A DNA stretch of 64,000 nucleotides from a virus. The notes beneath the pieces were generated by a model. It was not told the DNA's origin and did no database searches. It worked only from the letters and a program-made list of their open reading frames with translations. Both the position numbers and the translations under genes were made by a program. Shown here piece by piece: positions 44,255-62,101 of the stretch (the stretch's first letter is position 1; every line of letters starts with the position of its first letter). The DNA lies in the IMG/VR virus record IMGVR_UViG_3300006162_000012, positions 3,228-67,227 of that record. The stretch is one strand, 5' to 3'.

Positions 44255-44422
44255 ATGAAAAAAGAAGAACTCCCCTCTTTTTACAAATTGACGCCGGCGC
44301 AGGTCCGCGAGATCCGCCGACGGGAAGACGTAAGCGTGGCGCATTTCGCAGAGAAATTCAGCGTCTCGAAGATGACCGTGAGCAAAGTCCGCCGTGGACT
44401 TACATACCGGAGCGTGCAATGA
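44255..44422 (+). CDS. small HTH DNA-binding protein
   Basis: KLTPAQVREIR..AEKFSVSKMTVSKVRRG.TY. Confidence 0.7.
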   Translation: MKKEELPSFYKLTPAQVREIRRREDVSVAHFAEKFSVSKMTVSKVRRGLTYRSVQ

Positions 44423-45117
44423 CTAAGCCGAAAGATTACGAACTCCACGAATTCTGCGCCGCCTTCCCCGAGCTCGAAGCGAAAGATTTGCAAGACCTCG
44501 CCGACGACATCTACGCCAACGGCCTTCGCCATCCGATCATCCTCTTTGAAGACAAGATCCTTGACGGGCGGAACCGTTACCTCGCGTGCAAGATCCATGG
44601 CGTCGAACCGGAATTCGAAGAATTCCAAGGACCGCGGACAAAAGCGCTTGACTTCGTTGTCTCCGAGAACCTCGCCCGCCGGCACTTAAGCACGGCCGAA
44701 AAAGCTTTCGCCGCCGCCCGTCTATCCGACCTCCGCGGAACGAAAGCCCAAGATGAAGCCGAGCACCTTAAGGTCTCGTCGTCGTCCGCCCGCCGCGCGG
44801 AGAAGATCATCGATAAAGCCATTCCCGCTATCCAAGAAGCAGCGGAGAAAGGCGACATCACGCTCTTCGACGCGGCGAAGCTCGCGGACAAGCCGGCGGA
44901 AGTCCAAGAAAAAGTCGCCCGTTCTAAAGACAAAGACGCGGCTGCGAAAAAGGCGGTGAGCCCGCCGGTCCAGCCGCTCAAGACGATTATGACAAAGGAC
45001 GACAAGAAGGTCTTGGCGGAGATCGTGGACATCTGGAACATGGACCTTGCCGATATGTGGAAGCAGCTCGGCGACGTGGCGAAGGGGAAATTCATTTCTG
45101 ATGTCCTGGAGTATTGA
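44419..45117 (+). CDS. ParB-N-like domain protein
   Basis: L.DDI..NGL.HPI, ILDGRNRY.AC, SENL.RRHLS, then an HTH. Confidence 0.8.
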   Translation: MTKPKDYELHEFCAAFPELEAKDLQDLADDIYANGLRHPIILFEDKILDGRNRYLACKIHGVEPEFEEFQGPRTKALDFVVSENLARRHLSTAEKAFAAARLSDLRGTKAQDEAEHLKVSSSSARRAEKIIDKAIPAIQEAAEKGDITLFDAAKLADKPAEVQEKVARSKDKDAAAKKAVSPPVQPLKTIMTKDDKKVLAEIVDIWNMDLADMWKQLGDVAKGKFISDVLEY

Positions 45118-46947: not shown

Positions 46948-47086
46948 GCGTAGCGACGGGTGGTCTGACGAGCACCGCAAGAATATGTCTTCAGCGATGA
47001 AGGCCGCGTGGGAGCGGAAAAGAAAAATCAAGGAACAAAAAAAGAGCGCGGTGAAGCCCGTGAAGACCCATCGGGGAGCGAAATAA
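46934..47086 (+). CDS. small basic protein (NUMOD3-like)
   Basis: SDEHRKNMS.AMKAAWERKR. Confidence 0.5.
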   Translation: MLKDKRSDGWSDEHRKNMSSAMKAAWERKRKIKEQKKSAVKPVKTHRGAK

Positions 47087-48336
47087 TGTGCGGCTTCGCG
47101 ATGTCCCTCCTCCCCGACGATCCGTGGCTTATGAAGGCTGCCGCGGCGATCTCCCACCGCGGGACTCTCCCGCCCCGTGTCACTCGGCATTCAGCGTTCG
47201 CGAGGTTGCCGATCGTCGGGAGCTTCGAGCAACCGATCACGATCTTCGACGAGGAATTCTGTTTCGTCGGCGAATTGCTTAATTTTAGAGATTTCACGGA
47301 TGAGCTCGGCGACACGATGCTCGCGTTTAGGACCCTCCGCGACTTCGGCGTCCGCGGGTTCCAAGGGTTCGACGGATTTTGGTCAGTCGCCTACCACCGG
47401 CACGGCCGCATCACGCTGATCGCCGACTACCTCGCCCAGAAGCCGATCTTCTACACGCATTCTCGGGCGTGCAGCGAGCTATGGCCTTTGGTCGAAGAAG
47501 GAGAAGATTTCGACGAGGTTTTTCTTTCTGACGTGATGAAATGGGGCTATTGCCCGGACCAAAGCCGCACGCCGTTCACGAGGATTAAGAAAGTCCTTCC
47601 GGGCCATTCCGTGTCGTTGCCCGAACGCCAGATGGAGCATGCGGATCCAGTTTTCATCGCCGACGACTATTCTCCCGAAGCCCTCAAATACGCTTTTGAA
47701 GAAGCTGTCCGCCTCCGCGTCCAATCGTCAGACGTCCCCGTCGCCTGCCTCCTTTCCGGCGGATATGACTCGTCTTTGGTCTATCGGACTGCGCGGGAAT
47801 ACGGCGACATCGTCCCTTACCACATCGGCCTCACCGGAGAGCTTGGCGTCGCCCAATCTATCGCAGGTCCGTCTCTCCGCGTCGTGCCGACGGCCGCCCC
47901 GCCGACGGATCTTGAGATCCTCCTCTGGATGCAAGAACCTGTCGACCTTGGATCGGTGGAAGCCCAAATCCTCATGGCGGAAGCCGTGAAAGAAAACGTC
48001 TGCCTCGGCGGCGACGGCGCCGATGAATTCTTCGGCGGCTACGGACGGGCTGCACGATATGACAGCCGTTATTCGGACGTGTTCCACGAGCTTGTCTGTT
48101 ACCACCTTCCGCGGCTCGATCGGGTGATGATGCGGAAGGCCGTCGAATACCGGTCTCCCTTCCTTAGCCGAAGGATGGCCCAGCTGGCTTTAGCCGCCCC
48201 TTACGCGCCTAACAAAAAGATCCTTAGGGATATATGGCCCAACGACGTCGAGAAGAAGCCCTTGCGCCCGGCTGGCTTCGACCGCGAGGCCCATAGCATC
48301 CGGCTGGTCAAGCTTTTCCGGGAGATCTGGCTATGA
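47086..48336 (+). CDS. asparagine-synthetase-B-like amidotransferase / amide ligase
   Basis: start MCG (ATG 47086, TAATG overlap); HRG, RL.IV, PP-loop LLSGGYDSS, GDGADEFFGGY, DR..M...E.RSPFL. Confidence 0.88.
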   Translation: MCGFAMSLLPDDPWLMKAAAAISHRGTLPPRVTRHSAFARLPIVGSFEQPITIFDEEFCFVGELLNFRDFTDELGDTMLAFRTLRDFGVRGFQGFDGFWSVAYHRHGRITLIADYLAQKPIFYTHSRACSELWPLVEEGEDFDEVFLSDVMKWGYCPDQSRTPFTRIKKVLPGHSVSLPERQMEHADPVFIADDYSPEALKYAFEEAVRLRVQSSDVPVACLLSGGYDSSLVYRTAREYGDIVPYHIGLTGELGVAQSIAGPSLRVVPTAAPPTDLEILLWMQEPVDLGSVEAQILMAEAVKENVCLGGDGADEFFGGYGRAARYDSRYSDVFHELVCYHLPRLDRVMMRKAVEYRSPFLSRRMAQLALAAPYAPNKKILRDIWPNDVEKKPLRPAGFDREAHSIRLVKLFREIWL

Positions 48337-48569
48337 GCGTCATTAATCGGATGAATATCTCGATTTCGTCTATAGATAAACCTTCGACGATCGACGGTGA
48401 AGTCGTCCATTTCTCGTTCCACGGCGATCATTTCGCCATATGGTTTGTCCCATATAGGCCACGGCGCCAAGTGAAGATCGTCGGCACGGGGGAAACTTAT
48501 AAAGGGCGCCATTTAATCAGCGTTTCATTTGGAGACGCCGCTTGGCATTTAATTGAGGTGCAGGAATGA
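48333..48569 (+). CDS. hypothetical protein
   Basis: 78 aa; ATGA coupling at both ends. Confidence 0.6.
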   Translation: MSVINRMNISISSIDKPSTIDGEVVHFSFHGDHFAIWFVPYRPRRQVKIVGTGETYKGRHLISVSFGDAAWHLIEVQE

Positions 48570-49981
48570 AAAAGAAAGTTGAAGTCCCGCAGCTCACCGC
48601 CGTCGGTGTGACGTCTGGCATAGGGTCGATGCTCCATGGGGCGGCGAAGGCTGGGTTCAAGACGCTCGGGAACATCGAATGGCGGAAGTATTACCACGCC
48701 CGCGACGAACGCGGCCGCAACACGTTCACGGAGAATTTTCCCGGCGCCGTCTTCAAGCACAAATGGTCTGACCTTACGCCGGAAGAGGTCGAACGGCTGA
48801 TGAACCCGACGCTTGCCCTCATGCATTGCGAATGCGGGAATTTTTCGAAATTGAACGGCGCGAACGCCGACCGCCTGGAGGACTTGACTGATCCTGGCGA
48901 CATTCCGATCACGTTCGAGGTCGTGGCGAAGCTCCAACCGAGGTTCTTCGCTGCGGACAATCTTGCTCCTTCTTTCCAAGCGTTCTCGATGCGGGATTAC
49001 GTCGACGCCCTGCCGGATTACGATATTTTTCCTGAAGCGGTTTCGAATTGGGGTTACGGGAATGTGCAGAAAAAACGCGATCGGATGTTCGTTCTTGGCG
49101 CGAAGAAAGAAGAGGGCTTCACCTTCCGGCCTGACGAGCACGCCCATTCTGGCACTGTTCGGTCAGTCCTCGAAGGTTTAGGCGAGCCAGGGAAATCTAA
49201 TTACCCTAACCATGATCCCCACGCTCTTGACGTCATTTCTCCCCGCTCGACGAACATATTGCGCTTAGGAAAATCGGAGAATTGGCGCGTCGTCCGCGAT
49301 TGGTTCGCCGCCCGGCCTCCAGGGACGATAATGGAATATCTGAATAAAGATGGAGAGCTGAAAAAGCGCATCGGTTTCCTCAAAGCTAAATGGGACGGCC
49401 CGTGCAACGTCCTCACCGGCGGCAACGCGACGATCCACCCGATCCGCAATGTCCCCTTCACGATCCGCGAACGCGCCCGCATCCAAGGTTTCGACGACGA
49501 TTTCGTTTTCTACGGGACTAAGCTCGACGAGAAAGGGCAGTGGGTCCACGAAAACAATATGCACATGGTGAAGATGACGGGAAAGGCGATGCCGATCCAG
49601 TTCAATGAATACTTCGCCCGGCAGGTCGCTGCCCATGTCCTTCGGCAGCCTTTCAAAGCGGCAGGGACGCGGCTCCTCAAAAACGACCCGTTCATCGATG
49701 AAGCCAAGACTTGGTTTTGCGACAACGTGGGTTATTCGAAGCAGGAAGCGGCCTGCGGAGCGTGCTGGTTGGCTGAGGAGTGCGAAGTCAGGCGGAGGCG
49801 GTTCGGTTATACCCCTCCTCCTGAAGCGGCCGTCCGCAAGGTTCCTAAGGCCCCTGCCGTGAAAGCCGAAAAGGTTCCGAACGCGCCAAAAGCGCCAAAA
49901 GCGCCCCGCGCCGTAAAGGCGCCTAAAGAAACGATCGCGCCTGCCGGCGCGACGGCTACTACGATGTTGAAATTTGACTGA
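48566..49981 (+). CDS. divergent DNA C5-cytosine methyltransferase homologue (candidate carboxymethyltransferase)
   Basis: motif I VTSGIGS, IV HCECGNFS, VI ADNL, VIII Q..RDRMF, IX RERARIQGF.DDF, X TGKAMP. Confidence 0.82.
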   Translation: MKKKVEVPQLTAVGVTSGIGSMLHGAAKAGFKTLGNIEWRKYYHARDERGRNTFTENFPGAVFKHKWSDLTPEEVERLMNPTLALMHCECGNFSKLNGANADRLEDLTDPGDIPITFEVVAKLQPRFFAADNLAPSFQAFSMRDYVDALPDYDIFPEAVSNWGYGNVQKKRDRMFVLGAKKEEGFTFRPDEHAHSGTVRSVLEGLGEPGKSNYPNHDPHALDVISPRSTNILRLGKSENWRVVRDWFAARPPGTIMEYLNKDGELKKRIGFLKAKWDGPCNVLTGGNATIHPIRNVPFTIRERARIQGFDDDFVFYGTKLDEKGQWVHENNMHMVKMTGKAMPIQFNEYFARQVAAHVLRQPFKAAGTRLLKNDPFIDEAKTWFCDNVGYSKQEAACGACWLAEECEVRRRRFGYTPPPEAAVRKVPKAPAVKAEKVPNAPKAPKAPRAVKAPKETIAPAGATATTMLKFD

Positions 49982-49995
49982 AGGGAGAAGAAAAT

Positions 49996-50892
49996 ATGTC
50001 TATGGGCGATAAAGTTGAGGTTAGGGACGGCGACATACCGGGCGATTATCATTGCGCATGCGCATGGTGCTCGAAAGCCATCGGAGAGCTCCGTCCTTTG
50101 GACGGCTCATACTACAGTCGACTTGAGCGGCGGGCTTATTATTCCCCGACGGAAAAAGGCAAAGGCGGGCACATCGCGAAAACGCCGTTGCATATCGCCC
50201 GTTGGGCGATCCAAGCTTATTCGAAGAAAGGAGACTGGGTCCTGGATCCGACGATCGGCGCCGGGACGACGGCCGTCGAGTCGTTGACTCAAGGGCGAAG
50301 CGTCGCGGGGATGGAGCTTGAATTCGGGCAAATCCTTTCCGATAATATCAAGAAAGCTCTCTCCACGATCCCGAAAGGATCGGCAGAAGCGAAAGTCGCC
50401 CAAGGCGACGCGAGGAACATCGGCGATTTCTTGAAAAAGGTCGACCAGAAGTTCAAGCTGGTCGTCAACAATCCCCCCTATAGCGGCGACAAATCGGTCG
50501 GCACGCTCATCAAGGGAGGACCGCCGCAAATCCTCTACGCTTACGACAAAAAGCTCCCGAACCTGGCTTTCCTAAATGAAGGTCCCGTCTATATCGAAAC
50601 GATGACGGACATCTACAAAGCTTGCGTTTCAGCCCTCCAGCCAGGCGGGCATTTCGTCGTCGGCGTTAAAGACATGATGCGGAAACGCGAACCCTTCCTC
50701 CTTCACCAAATCTATTGCAGGATCCTCGAAGACCTAGGGATGGAATATGTCGGCGCCGCTTTCTTGAAGCATTATCCGGGCACATTGTTCCTGAACACAT
50801 ATTTCACGGCCCGCGGCGTCCACCCGCCTTATTACCAGACGATCGTCGTGTTCAAAAAACCTGGCGGCCGGGCGGCGAAAAAACTTTCCTGA
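49996..50892 (+). CDS. amino-methyltransferase (N4-C/N6-A type) homologue
   Basis: H.AKTP, VLDPTIGAGTT (motif I), GDAR, NNPPY (motif IV). Confidence 0.8.
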   Translation: MSMGDKVEVRDGDIPGDYHCACAWCSKAIGELRPLDGSYYSRLERRAYYSPTEKGKGGHIAKTPLHIARWAIQAYSKKGDWVLDPTIGAGTTAVESLTQGRSVAGMELEFGQILSDNIKKALSTIPKGSAEAKVAQGDARNIGDFLKKVDQKFKLVVNNPPYSGDKSVGTLIKGGPPQILYAYDKKLPNLAFLNEGPVYIETMTDIYKACVSALQPGGHFVVGVKDMMRKREPFLLHQIYCRILEDLGMEYVGAAFLKHYPGTLFLNTYFTARGVHPPYYQTIVVFKKPGGRAAKKLS

Positions 50893-50987: not shown

Positions 50988-51488
50988 ATGGTTGAGCTTA
51001 AAAAATTGCCTTTAGCGGAAAGCGCCACGGCGCGGACGATCGAAATAATTAAGACTCTTCCGTCGGGAAGCGTCTTCACAAGCACGACCATCAAAGACAT
51101 CGCCGCGGACGGCGGATGGTCCCTCGACGTAAGCCATATATCTGCAGCGCTTTACCGATGGCGCGGCAAGAAAATGTTCCGATGCATCGGCCATTCGTCC
51201 AACAACCGCAAACGCCTAGTTTACGTCATGGAGGATCCTTCCGTCGTCTTTAAGCTTAACCGCCGGCCGGAGCATGTAGTTGTCCGTCCAAGGCTCGGCG
51301 GTTACCATAAGCATTCAGACGCTCCGAATGTCCTCATCGGAGAATTCGGCTCCTCGAGGATAAACGAGCTTCCTAAGCAAGAAGTTACCGTGGTTCCGCC
51401 TGTCATTCTTGAAGACACACCGTCGTCGATCCTTGACGATTTCCTCCAGCTCCTCGTGCGGTTAGAAAAATTATTGAAGAAGGATTGA
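50988..51488 (+). CDS. hypothetical protein, possibly winged-helix
   Basis: GGAGG RBS; helix-turn-helix-like N-terminal half. Confidence 0.6.
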   Translation: MVELKKLPLAESATARTIEIIKTLPSGSVFTSTTIKDIAADGGWSLDVSHISAALYRWRGKKMFRCIGHSSNNRKRLVYVMEDPSVVFKLNRRPEHVVVRPRLGGYHKHSDAPNVLIGEFGSSRINELPKQEVTVVPPVILEDTPSSILDDFLQLLVRLEKLLKKD

Positions 51489-52276
51489 CGATGTTCAAGA
51501 ACCAAATCACAGCTTTCCGCGGAGCTCTCCTCGAAGCCCCAATCGTTAAGACAGAAAAATGGCAGGGCGTCGAAGCGAACCTTTCGACGAAGGAGATGAC
51601 AAACCAGTTCTTTATCGTCGATCTTAAGGGTGAGGAACGACTCAATGCCTATGCTGACGACATCAAGCCGAACCTTCCGTTCGCGGATAAAGCTTTTGAA
51701 GAGCGCGTCGGCGGGGAGCCTTTGAACCCTGGGACCGCGTGGCTTAGTTGGCCGTGGTCCCGATCGGCGGAAAAATTCAAGCCCTCAGTGTTCGACCATT
51801 CCTACGCAGAGCGTTATTGGCCTAAATTCGCGAACCGAAGCGAAGGAGGGAAATTGCCGGTTTCCTATCCTGAACGCATCCGACGTTACCCGGCGAAAGA
51901 TCCCCGGCCTCGGTGGGGAGCCCGCGGGCCATACGGCGACCTTGAGGATCTTGTGAACCTCCTTGACGACCAGCCCTTCACCCGGCAAGCTTACTTGCCG
52001 ATCTTCTACCCAGAAGATCTCGGCGGCTTGCCGCGGAAGCCTTGCACACTCGGCTATCATTTCCTCCAACGGGATGGGAAGTTCAATGTTTTCTACCTAA
52101 TGAGGAGTTGCGATTTCACAAGGCATTTCCGCGACGACTGCTACCTCACTATCCGTCTTCTTCTCTGGGTGCTCGACCAGCTCCGGATAAGGGACTCGTT
52201 TTGGCTCGGCGTCGTTCCTGGCGATTTTTCCATGTGGATCGGAAGCCTCCACGTTTTTGAAAAGGACCCCCTATGA
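51485..52276 (+). CDS. thymidylate-synthase-family protein, dCMP hydroxymethylase/methylase-like
   Basis: TRQAYLPI, catalytic PC, MRSCD, SLHVF; Asp at the pyrimidine-specificity position; short C-terminus. Confidence 0.82.
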   Translation: MTMFKNQITAFRGALLEAPIVKTEKWQGVEANLSTKEMTNQFFIVDLKGEERLNAYADDIKPNLPFADKAFEERVGGEPLNPGTAWLSWPWSRSAEKFKPSVFDHSYAERYWPKFANRSEGGKLPVSYPERIRRYPAKDPRPRWGARGPYGDLEDLVNLLDDQPFTRQAYLPIFYPEDLGGLPRKPCTLGYHFLQRDGKFNVFYLMRSCDFTRHFRDDCYLTIRLLLWVLDQLRIRDSFWLGVVPGDFSMWIGSLHVFEKDPL

Positions 52277-52644
52277 GCTATTTTCTTGATGTCCGAGATT
52301 TCCATCGAAAATTCGGCCTTCCTTCCGACGGGCCGGCGCGCCGGCTCGACGACGTCGAGCGGATTTTCCGCGAAAAATTCATGGAAGAAGAACTCAAAGA
52401 ATACAAAGAAGCCGACACGAAAGCCGACCAGCTTGACGCCCTCGTGGACCTTTGCTATGTCGCGATCGGGACTGCCGTGATGCAAGGCTTCGACTTCGAT
52501 GAAGCTTGGCGGCGGGTCCACGAAGCGAACATGAAGAAAGTCCGTGTATCGTCCGCTAGCCAAAGCAAGAGAGGGTCGACCCTCGACGTCGTGAAGCCGC
52601 CGGGCTGGACGCCTCCAGATCATTCCGACCTTGTAGGAGAATGA
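52273..52644 (+). CDS. MazG/PRA-PH-like dNTP pyrophosphohydrolase
   Basis: V.DFH.KFG, EEELKE, DALVDLCYV, VHEANM.K, KP.GW.PPD. Confidence 0.85.
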   Translation: MSYFLDVRDFHRKFGLPSDGPARRLDDVERIFREKFMEEELKEYKEADTKADQLDALVDLCYVAIGTAVMQGFDFDEAWRRVHEANMKKVRVSSASQSKRGSTLDVVKPPGWTPPDHSDLVGE

Positions 52645-52645
52645 C

Positions 52646-53074
52646 ATGACTGATTGGATTGTCCGATGGTTCGAGCTGGCTGAGCACATTTCGACCTGGA
52701 GCAAAGATCCTAGGACGAAAGTCGGCGCAGTCCTCGTCGGCGCTGACCGACGGGAGATCGCCGTTGGGTTCAATGGGTTCCCCCGCGGTGTCGAAGACAC
52801 TGAAGAACGCTTGAACAATAGGTCGGTGAAGAACGCCCTCACGCAACATGCAGAGAGGAACGTCCTCGACAACGCCCGCTTCGACGCGAAAGGCGGAACG
52901 CTTGTCGTGACTTTCGCTCCTTGCCATGAATGCGCGAAGTCGATCATCGCCAAAGGCGTCGCCCGCGTGATCTGCCCTCCTAGCAGCCAGGATCCGAAGT
53001 GGCTGGAGAGCTTCGCCCTATCTTCAGAACTTTTCGATGAGGCCGGCGTCGAATTGCTAATTTTTTCAAAATAA
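52646..53074 (+). CDS. dCMP deaminase
   Basis: WSKDP.TKVGA, GFNGFPRG, HAE.N, PCHECAK.II. Confidence 0.92.
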   Translation: MTDWIVRWFELAEHISTWSKDPRTKVGAVLVGADRREIAVGFNGFPRGVEDTEERLNNRSVKNALTQHAERNVLDNARFDAKGGTLVVTFAPCHECAKSIIAKGVARVICPPSSQDPKWLESFALSSELFDEAGVELLIFSK

Positions 53075-61170: not shown

Positions 61171-61752
61171 ATGACGAAAAGGTTAGATCCTAGCGAGCTT
61201 CTTCAATTTCGCTGGACACGGGAAATGGACACTATACTTCGGAACCTCGCGGTCGGGAAAAAAACCGCCCAAGAAATCGCTTCCATTTTCAATAAAATGG
61301 GCTATCAAAACATCACGCGGTATTCTATCTTAGGACGGAGCCACCGCATGGGACTTCGATTAGATAAATTCTTCTGGACAGCCGAAATGGACGCCTTTTT
61401 AAGGAAAGTCGTCGAGGACGGCAAGTCGGCCGCCGAGGCTCTTGTCCTTTTTTATGAAAAAGGACACTCCAGCTTGTCCAGGAACGCTCTTGTGGGCCGG
61501 AGCCACCGACTCGGCCTGCGGTTCCATAAAGCGAAAGAACGCAATGTCCCGATCAAGCGCGCTGCGAAGCTAGCGATCGCTGTCGACGAGGTCTCCTTCG
61601 ACGGCGGCGTCGATTTCGCCAGCCTTCCCGATAAGGCCTGCCGTTTTCCTGTCAGCCCTTTCCACGCGAAAGAACACAAATTCTGCGGAGCTCCTTCCGA
61701 CGGAAAATCGCGTTATTGCGCAGACCATGCAGCGATCGCTAGGAGGAATTGA
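61171..61752 (+). CDS. GcrA-like regulator with duplicated N-terminal HTH
   Basis: two WT.EMD..LR...GK.A...(T/S)R....GR.HR.GLR units; C-terminal CRFP..FCG.P...YC..H. Confidence 0.8.
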   Translation: MTKRLDPSELLQFRWTREMDTILRNLAVGKKTAQEIASIFNKMGYQNITRYSILGRSHRMGLRLDKFFWTAEMDAFLRKVVEDGKSAAEALVLFYEKGHSSLSRNALVGRSHRLGLRFHKAKERNVPIKRAAKLAIAVDEVSFDGGVDFASLPDKACRFPVSPFHAKEHKFCGAPSDGKSRYCADHAAIARRN

Positions 61753-61753
61753 G

Positions 61754-62101
61754 ATGGCCCCGCAAAAGATCTACATCGCCGGTCCGATGGGCGGTTTGCC
61801 TGATTTGAATTTTCCCGCGTTCCACCAAGCAGCAGAAAAGCTCCGCCGGTGGGGACATTTTGTCTTCAACCCGGCGGAGCACGACCAAGGATCCTATAGA
61901 GCGAACCTCCAAATCGACTTATCTTGGATATGCGGTGAAGCTCAGGCGATTTTCATGCTTGCCGGCTGGGAAAAAAGCCCTGGCGCGAGAGCAGAACATG
62001 CGTTGGCCGTGGCGTTGGGGCTTGACATTTGGTATGAAATGTTTCTCCTATTGACGCTTGACGAAACTGAAGCCGCTCATCATTTCGTAGGCGAAAAATA
62101 A
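61754..62101 (+). CDS. DUF4406 / nucleoside-deoxyribosyltransferase-like protein
   Basis: IYIAGPM.G.PDLNFPAF, NPAE, L.GWEKSPGARAEH. Confidence 0.8.
   Translation: MAPQKIYIAGPMGGLPDLNFPAFHQAAEKLRRWGHFVFNPAEHDQGSYRANLQIDLSWICGEAQAIFMLAGWEKSPGARAEHALAVALGLDIWYEMFLLLTLDETEAAHHFVGEK

Follow-up and report, generated by a model that had tools for sequence, protein, structure and literature searches.

A Lys-type C5-methyltransferase homologue and an AsnB-like ligase form a candidate cytosine carboxymethylation-amidation cassette in a freshwater phage

The genome of a freshwater phage (IMG/VR record IMGVR_UViG_3300006162_000012; 67,227 bases, rated 98% complete) contains a cassette in which a homologue of cytosine C5-methyltransferases (C5-MTases), with a lysine in place of the canonical motif X asparagine, is encoded together with an AsnB-like protein. 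Judged by fold, motifs, conservation and gene linkage, in the 64,000-nucleotide stretch analysed here (bases 3228-67227 of the record, hereafter the window) and in related phages, this cassette is best explained as a CmoA-independent, Lys-type relative of the CmoX/CmoY pathway. Our best reading of its function, to which we assign a probability of about 40%, is the carboxymethylation of cytosine at C5 followed by amidation to 5-carbamoylmethylcytosine. This reading is supported by the alignment column of Lys340, by Gly91, by the invariant Cys90, Arg171 and Arg173, by the linkage of the AsnB-like and MTase genes and by the AsnB fold.

A pathway of this kind was established in Synechococcus phage S-B43, as described in the text of Yang et al. 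(Nat Commun 2025; PMC12783734): CmoA makes carboxy-S-adenosylmethionine (carboxy-SAM), cytosines in GC sites receive a carboxymethyl group at C5 through CmoX, and CmoY, an AsnB-like ligase, adds glycine; both 5-carboxymethylcytosine (5cxmC) and its glycine amide were proven. An earlier note on this DNA, made from its letters alone, proposed a new carboxymethylation-amidation pathway and cautioned that related systems might already have been reported. The caution was justified, and the proposed chemistry was correct in kind, but that kind had been published. Our literature search for pathways of this kind returned PMC12783734 as the sole match, the supplement of which might mention Lys variants. 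On sequence comparison, the Lys-type family appears to be a different variant from the published CmoX system, set apart by its motifs, a two-domain ligase, the absence of CmoA and a thymidylate synthase (TS) homologue as neighbour.

The region 47086-50892 consists of four tightly packed genes on the plus strand (overlaps of 4 nt, one gap of 14 nt), as expected from the coupled operon described previously. The stop codon of the AsnB-like gene overlaps the start of a 78-aa open reading frame (ORF) as ATGA, the coordinates of this ORF and of the C5-MTase homologue overlap by 4 nt, and 14 nt separate the latter from an amino-methyltransferase (amino-MTase) gene (Table 1). In the C5-MTase homologue, motifs IV, VI, VIII and X read HCECGNFS, ADNLA, QKKRDRMF and MTGKAMPI, respectively; the canonical C5-MTase set (PC(Q) in motif IV, ENV in VI, GN in X) is thus not matched, with EC(G), DNL and GK in its place. 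The predicted GKAMP of motif X, including its lysine codon, was found as proposed.

Relatives of this enzyme are numerous, at least 336 of the 8000 candidates scored having E <= 0.001, and the family is confined to phage-like contigs. A family alignment of 33 members (A1), comprising the window enzyme and 32 of the 120 listed relatives, contains seven invariant residues, C90, G91, D131, R171, R173, G339 and K340, which include the catalytic cysteine that the earlier note had recognised. The family consensus reads HPECGNFS, MDDLP and TGKAMP; the altered motifs IV and VI named in that note are hence present, but HCEC and DNL are peculiar to the window enzyme. A scan of IMG/VR with the MTase family alignment yielded 34 related loci, the neighbourhoods of which were scored by tblastn. 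The motif X lysine was present in 36/36 reported high-scoring segment pairs (HSPs), originating from 33 of these 34 loci and the window, while locus L033 gave no HSP. An acidic residue preceding the motif IV cysteine was detected in 31 of 35 sources (34 loci plus window) by a regular-expression search of the six-frame translations, which missed the remaining four; as such counts missed or mis-hit some motifs, aligned results are preferred wherever the two conflict. In a profile search, p-e-C paired with P-P-C of solved C5-MTases and vmDdLp with aENVp.

In a second, MAFFT-based alignment (A2) that includes SpCmoX (GenBank MN018232) and two annotated phage cytosine MTases, the column of Lys340 also holds Arg350 of SpCmoX (VGRMVP) and the asparagine of the two phage enzymes (IGNSVS and AGNAVP), which places the lysine at the motif X asparagine position, as proposed. 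The column of Gly91 contains serine in SpCmoX and glutamine in ordinary MTases (Gln82 of M.HhaI). MAFFT was used for motif X because the profile search and the hhalign comparison with the SpCmoX structure 8YF3 (probability 94%) ended short of this motif owing to a 12-residue insert; a single-sequence search of the PDB with the MTase homologue did not reach 8YF3. The AlphaFold2 (AF2) model of the enzyme (pLDDT 88.9) aligned with SpCmoX (8yf3) at a VIA-align Z of 25.0 (rmsd 3.5, 286 aligned residues), and with 3g7u, 1dct and M.HhaI at 26.4, 25.7 and 24.3, respectively. These values are tied, so the fold indicates a C5-MTase and nothing more specific: the structural comparison with M.HhaI suggested earlier bears out the fold but does not separate SpCmoX from ordinary MTases.

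The C-terminal part of the protein contains a cluster of four cysteines, all invariant in the family alignment and followed by a Lys/Ala/Pro-rich tail, and no solved chain aligned past residue ~370 of the model in VIA-align. The spacing of the last three cysteines resembles that of the iron-sulfur cluster loop of EndoIII/MutY, and the segment encoded at 49718-49981 could be a metal-bound DNA-binding module. Among the 120 listed relatives, six are fused to a PF01555 amino-MTase and six more carry a Vsr-like domain (PF04480), four of the latter also containing intein/Hint domains. Tandem Lys-type paralogues occur within one phage at locus L017 (8607-9950 and 10001-11161) and at L020 (4422-5600 and about 6500), and in L035 the MTase match stretches over 2.1 kb, suggesting an insert.

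The second member of the pair adopts the two-domain AsnB fold, in which the N-terminal cysteine of an N-terminal nucleophile (Ntn) glutaminase domain is combined with a PP-loop synthetase domain. Its AF2 model (pLDDT 90.0) matches E. coli AsnB (1ct9) across both domains (Z 37.0, rmsd 2.6, 387 aligned residues), with residue 2 superimposed on chain residue 1, and the hydroxyamidotransferase TsnB9 is as good a match (Z 37.0); furthermore, its PP-loop, LLSGGYDSS, aligns to that of E. coli AsnB. A Met-Cys-Gly start is present in 27 of 33 AsnB-like sequences, and five more have V/L-CG at the aligned start, taken to reflect GTG/TTG initiators; L010 was not resolved. The protein scores 112 bits against NCBIfam asn_synth_AEB, below the cut-off of 267, and is hence not an AsnB equivalog. 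AsnB-fold enzymes convert carboxylates to amides via acyl-adenylates, so that a carboxylate is expected to arise in the pathway.

The two genes are closely linked. The AsnB-like gene was found in 32 of the 34 MTase-selected loci, L027 being cut off upstream and L028 lacking it; it abuts the MTase gene in close relatives, and in distant ones an all-alpha nucleoside triphosphate pyrophosphatase lies between them. A scan with an AsnB alignment returned 17 loci, two of which were new: L129 is truncated, and L137 encodes AsnB, amino-MTase, TS homologue, deaminase and DNA polymerase I (PolA) with no C5-MTase hit. A TS-selected set, formed by the best 80 loci of 480 IMG/VR stretches encoding a relative and sharing some contigs with the 34-locus set, comprised 61 loci with TS alone, 17 with TS, AsnB and MTase, one with TS and AsnB and one with TS and MTase. 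The co-occurrence of Lys-type MTases with AsnB genes that the earlier note asked about is therefore seen in both sets (17 loci with both genes against two with only one in the latter); the AsnB-like gene and the MTase gene form a tight pair which, in this lineage, is an add-on to a TS module. With the 78-aa ORF, SpCmoA or SpCmoY as query, tblastn gave no match in the 34 related loci. Although coupled on both sides in the operon, as noted before, this ORF is not conserved and is probably not a member of the pathway. The amino-MTase gene adjoins the MTase gene in 18 of the 34 loci; the Pfam match of its product spans 60 residues, and in NCBIfam it weakly resembles both CcrM and PrmC, a glutamine-amide methylase, so that it may methylate either adenine or the new side chain.

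It is highly unlikely that the enzyme is an ordinary, sequence-specific 5-methylcytosine (5mC) methyltransferase with the AsnB-like protein serving an unrelated purpose, for instance providing asparagine or modifying some other molecule. Pfam and NCBIfam recognise only a C5-MTase, its fold score is tied with those of ordinary MTases, and the AsnB-like genes of some other phages (L123-L126) have no MTase in their vicinity. However, the Asn-to-Lys and Gln-to-Gly replacements are invariant at two pocket positions, and the AsnB linkage is near-obligate. Gln82 and Asn304 of M.HhaI line the pocket for the transferred group and crowd extended groups; in the results given in PMC3526304, Q82A lowered AdoMet activity about 16-fold, and Q82/Y254/N304 variants were better at moving extended groups, while their methylation was about 30-fold slower. 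As pocket changes thus slow methylation in M.HhaI (PMC3526304), the natural occurrence of glycine and lysine at both corresponding positions argues, at the level of sequence, for a bulkier, anionic transferred group. The AsnB relatives at L123-L126, in four deposited phage records, had also been considered as a link to the pathway; this was dropped, as neither MTase nor CmoA is encoded in their neighbourhood.

In the reaction sequence that we favour, the C5-MTase homologue would flip out a cytosine of the phage DNA, Cys90 would attack C6, and the cytosine would receive an anionic group that Lys340 binds in the pocket enlarged by Gly91. The AsnB-like enzyme would then adenylate the new carboxylate and, using ammonia that its Cys1 domain frees from glutamine, convert it to the amide, yielding 5-carbamoylmethylcytosine. 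The precedent for the transferred group is the carboxymethyl group of carboxy-SAM. M.MpeI N374K, an engineered C5-MTase, is reportedly the work of Wang & Kohli (2021). This variant uses carboxy-SAM according to the Discussion of Yang et al. (PMC12783734), in which Arg350 of SpCmoX, seen to contact the carboxymethyl group in the crystal structure, is likened to the N374K substitution. We infer DNA as the substrate, the identity of the transferred group, the amide product and a protection from restriction, and consider the donor to be the weakest step.

Several observations weigh against this reading, beginning with the donor. The earlier note had recognised no carboxy-SAM synthase in the window, and CmoA (TIGR00740) indeed gave no match at E <= 10 in the whole 67,227-base, 98%-complete record, nor at E <= 1 in the 34 related records, a set that includes 11 with a completeness of 90% or more; as a positive control, the same search finds SpCmoA at 2.5e-34 (115.6 bits). 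In addition, none of the replication-module ORFs without assignment resembles a class-I methyltransferase. CmoA is thus present in none of 35 Lys-type records, whereas the survey of Yang et al., which kept 5,615 CmoX with the filter SPPC + R350, counted 4,257 CmoA and 2,251 ligases on the contigs of these Arg-type enzymes (PMC12783734); with the filter described in the text of that paper, the Lys-type family was excluded by design.

A GcrA homologue is encoded at 61171-61752 (PF07750, 9.8e-18, over cut-off). GcrA is an alphaproteobacterial cell-cycle regulator, and it was found in only 2 of 20 family records, so that a host inference drawn from it is valid for this window and not for the whole family. 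The closest relative of the MTase, at L042 (10001-10605), is an N-terminal Lys-type fragment (71% over 87 residues, frame broken near residue 95) on a 2.78-Mb contig of an uncultured-alphaproteobacterium metagenome-assembled genome (MAG); it is accompanied by neither AsnB nor TS and is probably a remnant. From the GcrA homologue and this fragment, the host is probably an alphaproteobacterium. Of the three loci found in the bacterial genome collection, two are phage contigs that had been binned into MAGs and the third is the N-terminal fragment of the MTase; the MAGs, which are incomplete, contained no CmoA over the cut-off. Among 201 genomes sampled from the alphaproteobacterial class, five had a CmoA over the cut-off, eight reached the SpCmoA score and ten had a match at E <= 1e-10. 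The native CmoA of E. coli is reported in the text of PMC12783734 to be enough for SpCmoX in vivo; given a CmoA-poor host class, host-supplied carboxy-SAM, though possible, is unlikely for this phage. The genome gave no tRNA gene in a search for them, and a search of sequencing runs returned only assembled contigs from freshwater metagenomes, three of which are possibly the source. Lastly, motifs IV and VI read HPEC/HCEC and DDL/DNL here as against SPPC and ENV in CmoX, and the AsnB-like protein has no significant similarity to SpCmoY (BLASTP E 0.03, confined to 30 residues around the PP-loop).

The systematic absence of CmoA and the probable CmoA-poor host class would both be accounted for if SAM itself served as the donor of a 3-amino-3-carboxypropyl (acp) group, which the AsnB-like enzyme would amidate to a diphthamide-like 3-amino-3-carbamoylpropyl-cytosine. 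Transfer of acp followed by amidation has precedents in diphthamide and Tyw2. Lys340 would then hold the alpha-carboxylate and Glu89 the ammonium, so that the acidic residue in front of the catalytic cysteine, absent from CmoX, would have a function, and the NPPY amino-MTase, adjacent in 18/34 loci, fused in 6 of 120 listed relatives and weakly matching the amide N-methylase PrmC, might methylate the new amine or amide. However, acp transfer is not known for any enzyme of the C5-MTase fold, a literature search on acp, DNA and bacteriophage returned unrelated papers only, and N6-adenine MTases are commonplace in phages without any acp-type role; we regard this route as quite unlikely. The more sweeping version, in which Lys-type enzymes never use carboxy-SAM but place acp from SAM onto cytosine or a 5-hydroxymethylcytosine (5hmC) handle that is amidated and perhaps N-methylated, is distinctly unlikely; it would explain both the constant lack of CmoA alongside these enzymes, which number at least 336, and the extra acidic residue beside their catalytic cysteine.

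The neighbourhood of the pair raises doubts about the target base as well. All 32 TS homologues compared have an aspartate eight residues past the RSCD motif (RSxD-x7-D), at the position of Asn177 of E. coli TS; the best PDB sequence match of the window protein is the CMP 5-hydroxymethylase MilA (8.6e-05), with the aspartate aligned. It is the sole TS homologue, PF00303 matching once in the genome, in which ThyX had no match; it terminates seven residues past SLHVF. Exchange of Asn177 for aspartate turns TS toward deoxycytidine monophosphate (dCMP), and TS, PRA-PH and dCMP-deaminase domains co-occur specifically on modified-cytosine contigs, as set out in the text of the MetaGPA paper (PMC8670742), so that the module is a mark of phages in which every cytosine is modified. 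The TS homologue is therefore, on sequence grounds, likely a dCMP hydroxymethylase or methylase, and an Asp177-type TS beside the pair can be read as a sign that cytosine is replaced before replication. Were every cytosine exchanged for 5hmC or 5mC by this module, no free C5 would be left and the mechanism of CmoX could not operate in its described form; the substitutions in motif IV (Pro to Glu) and motif VI (Glu to Asp), not seen in CmoX, would then be understandable.

The pair might instead decorate a base installed before replication: dC would be converted to 5-hydroxymethyl-dC by the TS homologue and pyrophosphatase, joined in relatives by a deoxynucleoside monophosphate (dNMP) kinase, the MTase homologue would act on this handle, for example by O-alkylating the hydroxyl with a carboxylate-bearing group, and the AsnB-like enzyme would amidate the product, in a role parallel to that of glucosyl- and carbamoyl-transferases in other 5hmC phages. 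Besides the conserved aspartate of a sole TS and altered motifs that would suit a different flipped base, several linkage data fit this alternative. In 31 of 34 loci a TS homologue is encoded no more than 10 kb from the MTase, and in L032 and L033 its gene separates those of MTase and AsnB; a dNMP-kinase domain is encoded directly upstream of AsnB in 10 relatives; the TS, PRA-PH and deaminase module marks modified-cytosine contigs in the account of PMC8670742; and its occurrence without the pair in 61/80 loci makes the pair look like an add-on. However, the catalytic cysteine is invariant although O-alkylation would not need it, and this invariance speaks for a covalent reaction at C6 of a base whose C5 is unoccupied. 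Furthermore, no kinase domain was found in the window, the phages are all related (PolA 25-53% identical), so that the shared gene order is perhaps inherited rather than functional, and the TS product could be 5hm-dCMP, 5m-dCMP or a dTMP supply via the deaminase. We therefore consider this alternative rather unlikely, and retain C5 carboxymethylation with subsequent amidation as our best reading.

In the TS-only loci, an uncharacterised ORF of about 265 aa is located directly upstream of TS in 51 of 61 cases, and a dNMP-kinase-MazG fusion is encoded in 45 of 61 (representatives: L206 9144-9938, L209 2548-3531). Both may belong to another kind of cytosine-modification cassette.

Downstream of the amino-MTase, the window encodes a 166-aa ORF without a family match, the TS homologue, a MazG/PRA-PH-type protein, dCMP deaminase and DNA polymerase I (Table 1). 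A ParB-like gene (44419-45117), 2 kb upstream of the cassette, had no tblastn match in the 34 related loci, and ParBc-domain proteins are described on many CmoX contigs in the text of Yang et al. (PMC12783734). A nucleoside 2-deoxyribosyltransferase-like protein is encoded at 61727-62101 (phrog_355, 1e-33). The superfamily includes nucleotide N-glycosidases, and this protein might clear a canonical dNMP. A promoter/terminator scan returned eight promoter-like sites against 3.0 +/- 1.8 expected, none of which was used for any conclusion.

Table 1. Coordinates, in the window, of the cassette, of the motifs of its Lys-type enzyme and of the adjoining nucleotide-metabolism genes.
Feature	Coordinates	Strand	Evidence or remarks
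AsnB-like glutamine amidotransferase / ATP-dependent amide ligase, 416 aa, Met-Cys-Gly start	47086..48336	+	Pfam Asn_synthase 2.6e-22
78-aa ORF	48333..48569	+	DUF7352 weak, 0.0021, under cut-off
Lys-type C5-cytosine methyltransferase homologue, 471 aa	48566..49981	+	PF00145 4.9e-11, 43.1 bits vs cut-off 22
Motif IV Glu89-Cys90-Gly91 (canonical Pro-Cys-Gln)	48830..48838	+	alignments
Motif VI Asp131-Asn132-Leu133 (canonical Glu-Asn-Val; family Asp-Asp-Leu)	48956..48964	+	alignments
Motif X Gly339-Lys340	49580..49585	+	Lys codon AAG 49583-49585, within MTGKAMPI
Cys385-X11-Cys397-X2-Cys400-X5-Cys406 cluster	49718..49783	+	C-terminal; alignment of family
Amino-methyltransferase (DPTIGAGTT ... NNPPY)	49996..50892	+	PF01555 (N6_N4_Mtase) 1.3e-15
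Thymidylate-synthase (TS) homologue, Asp218 (52136-52138) at E. coli Asn177 position	51485..52276	+	phrog_160 1.9e-25
MazG/PRA-PH-type nucleotide pyrophosphohydrolase	52273..52644	+	PF01503 5.9e-13, phrog_671 7e-27
dCMP deaminase	52646..53074	+	PF00383 3.5e-18, phrog_174 3.6e-41

Carboxymethylcytosine and its amides joined the natural DNA bases only in December 2025, and the survey that defined them left out the Lys-type family, which is large (at least 336 relatives at E <= 0.001) and never found beside a cofactor synthase. If carboxy-SAM comes from the hosts, the known pathway would be extended to a primary amide, 5-carbamoylmethylcytosine, an analogue of 5-carbamoylmethyluridine (ncm5U) in tRNA whose existence was predicted earlier and which has not been observed so far. 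If another donor is used or 5hmC is the target, the product would be a DNA base that nobody has described, and the enzyme, as a natural C5-transferase, would bring a new range of cofactors to DNA labelling. Should acp be the transferred group, a diphthamide-like pathway would write a cationic amino-amide base into DNA.

The modules known from T4 and from MetaGPA to produce 5hmC share with the present locus the TS homologue, PRA-PH and dCMP deaminase, which also flank the pair here. Their decorating enzymes are glucosyl- and carbamoyl-transferases, whereas a pair of C5-MTase homologue and AsnB-like protein is not described in the parts of PMC8670742 on which this comparison draws. M.MpeI N374K resembles the window enzyme in the Asn-to-Lys replacement at the corresponding motif X position. 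It is an engineered mutant of a CpG methylase with canonical motifs IV and VI, whereas the lysine here is natural, invariant in the family and accompanied by more active-site changes.

With CmoX, the window enzyme shares the C5-MTase fold, the catalytic cysteine, a cationic motif X residue, a small residue at the position of HhaI Gln82 and an AsnB-family ligase gene alongside. Lys340 occupies the column of SpCmoX Arg350, so that the charge is kept and the residue is not, and the two proteins are 20% identical in the MAFFT alignment; a scan with SpCmoX returned only cyanophage relatives, 86-97% identical. The four-cysteine module is C-terminal here, whereas SpCmoX lacks it and ends after motif X, and S-B43 has no PF00303 match, whereas the window pair sits in an Asp177-TS cassette. 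Like CmoY, the AsnB-like protein contains an AsnB-family synthetase domain with a PP-loop (SGGxDS) and is encoded beside a C5-MTase homologue; SpCmoY differs in being only 271 aa long and in lacking a glutaminase domain. The second-largest ligase cluster of the survey (A0A7T0Q3R0-type) is described in the text of PMC12783734 as having a glutaminase domain, predicted to use ammonia and not obtained in soluble form; a glutaminase domain, with a cysteine after the initiator, is present in the window ligase as well.

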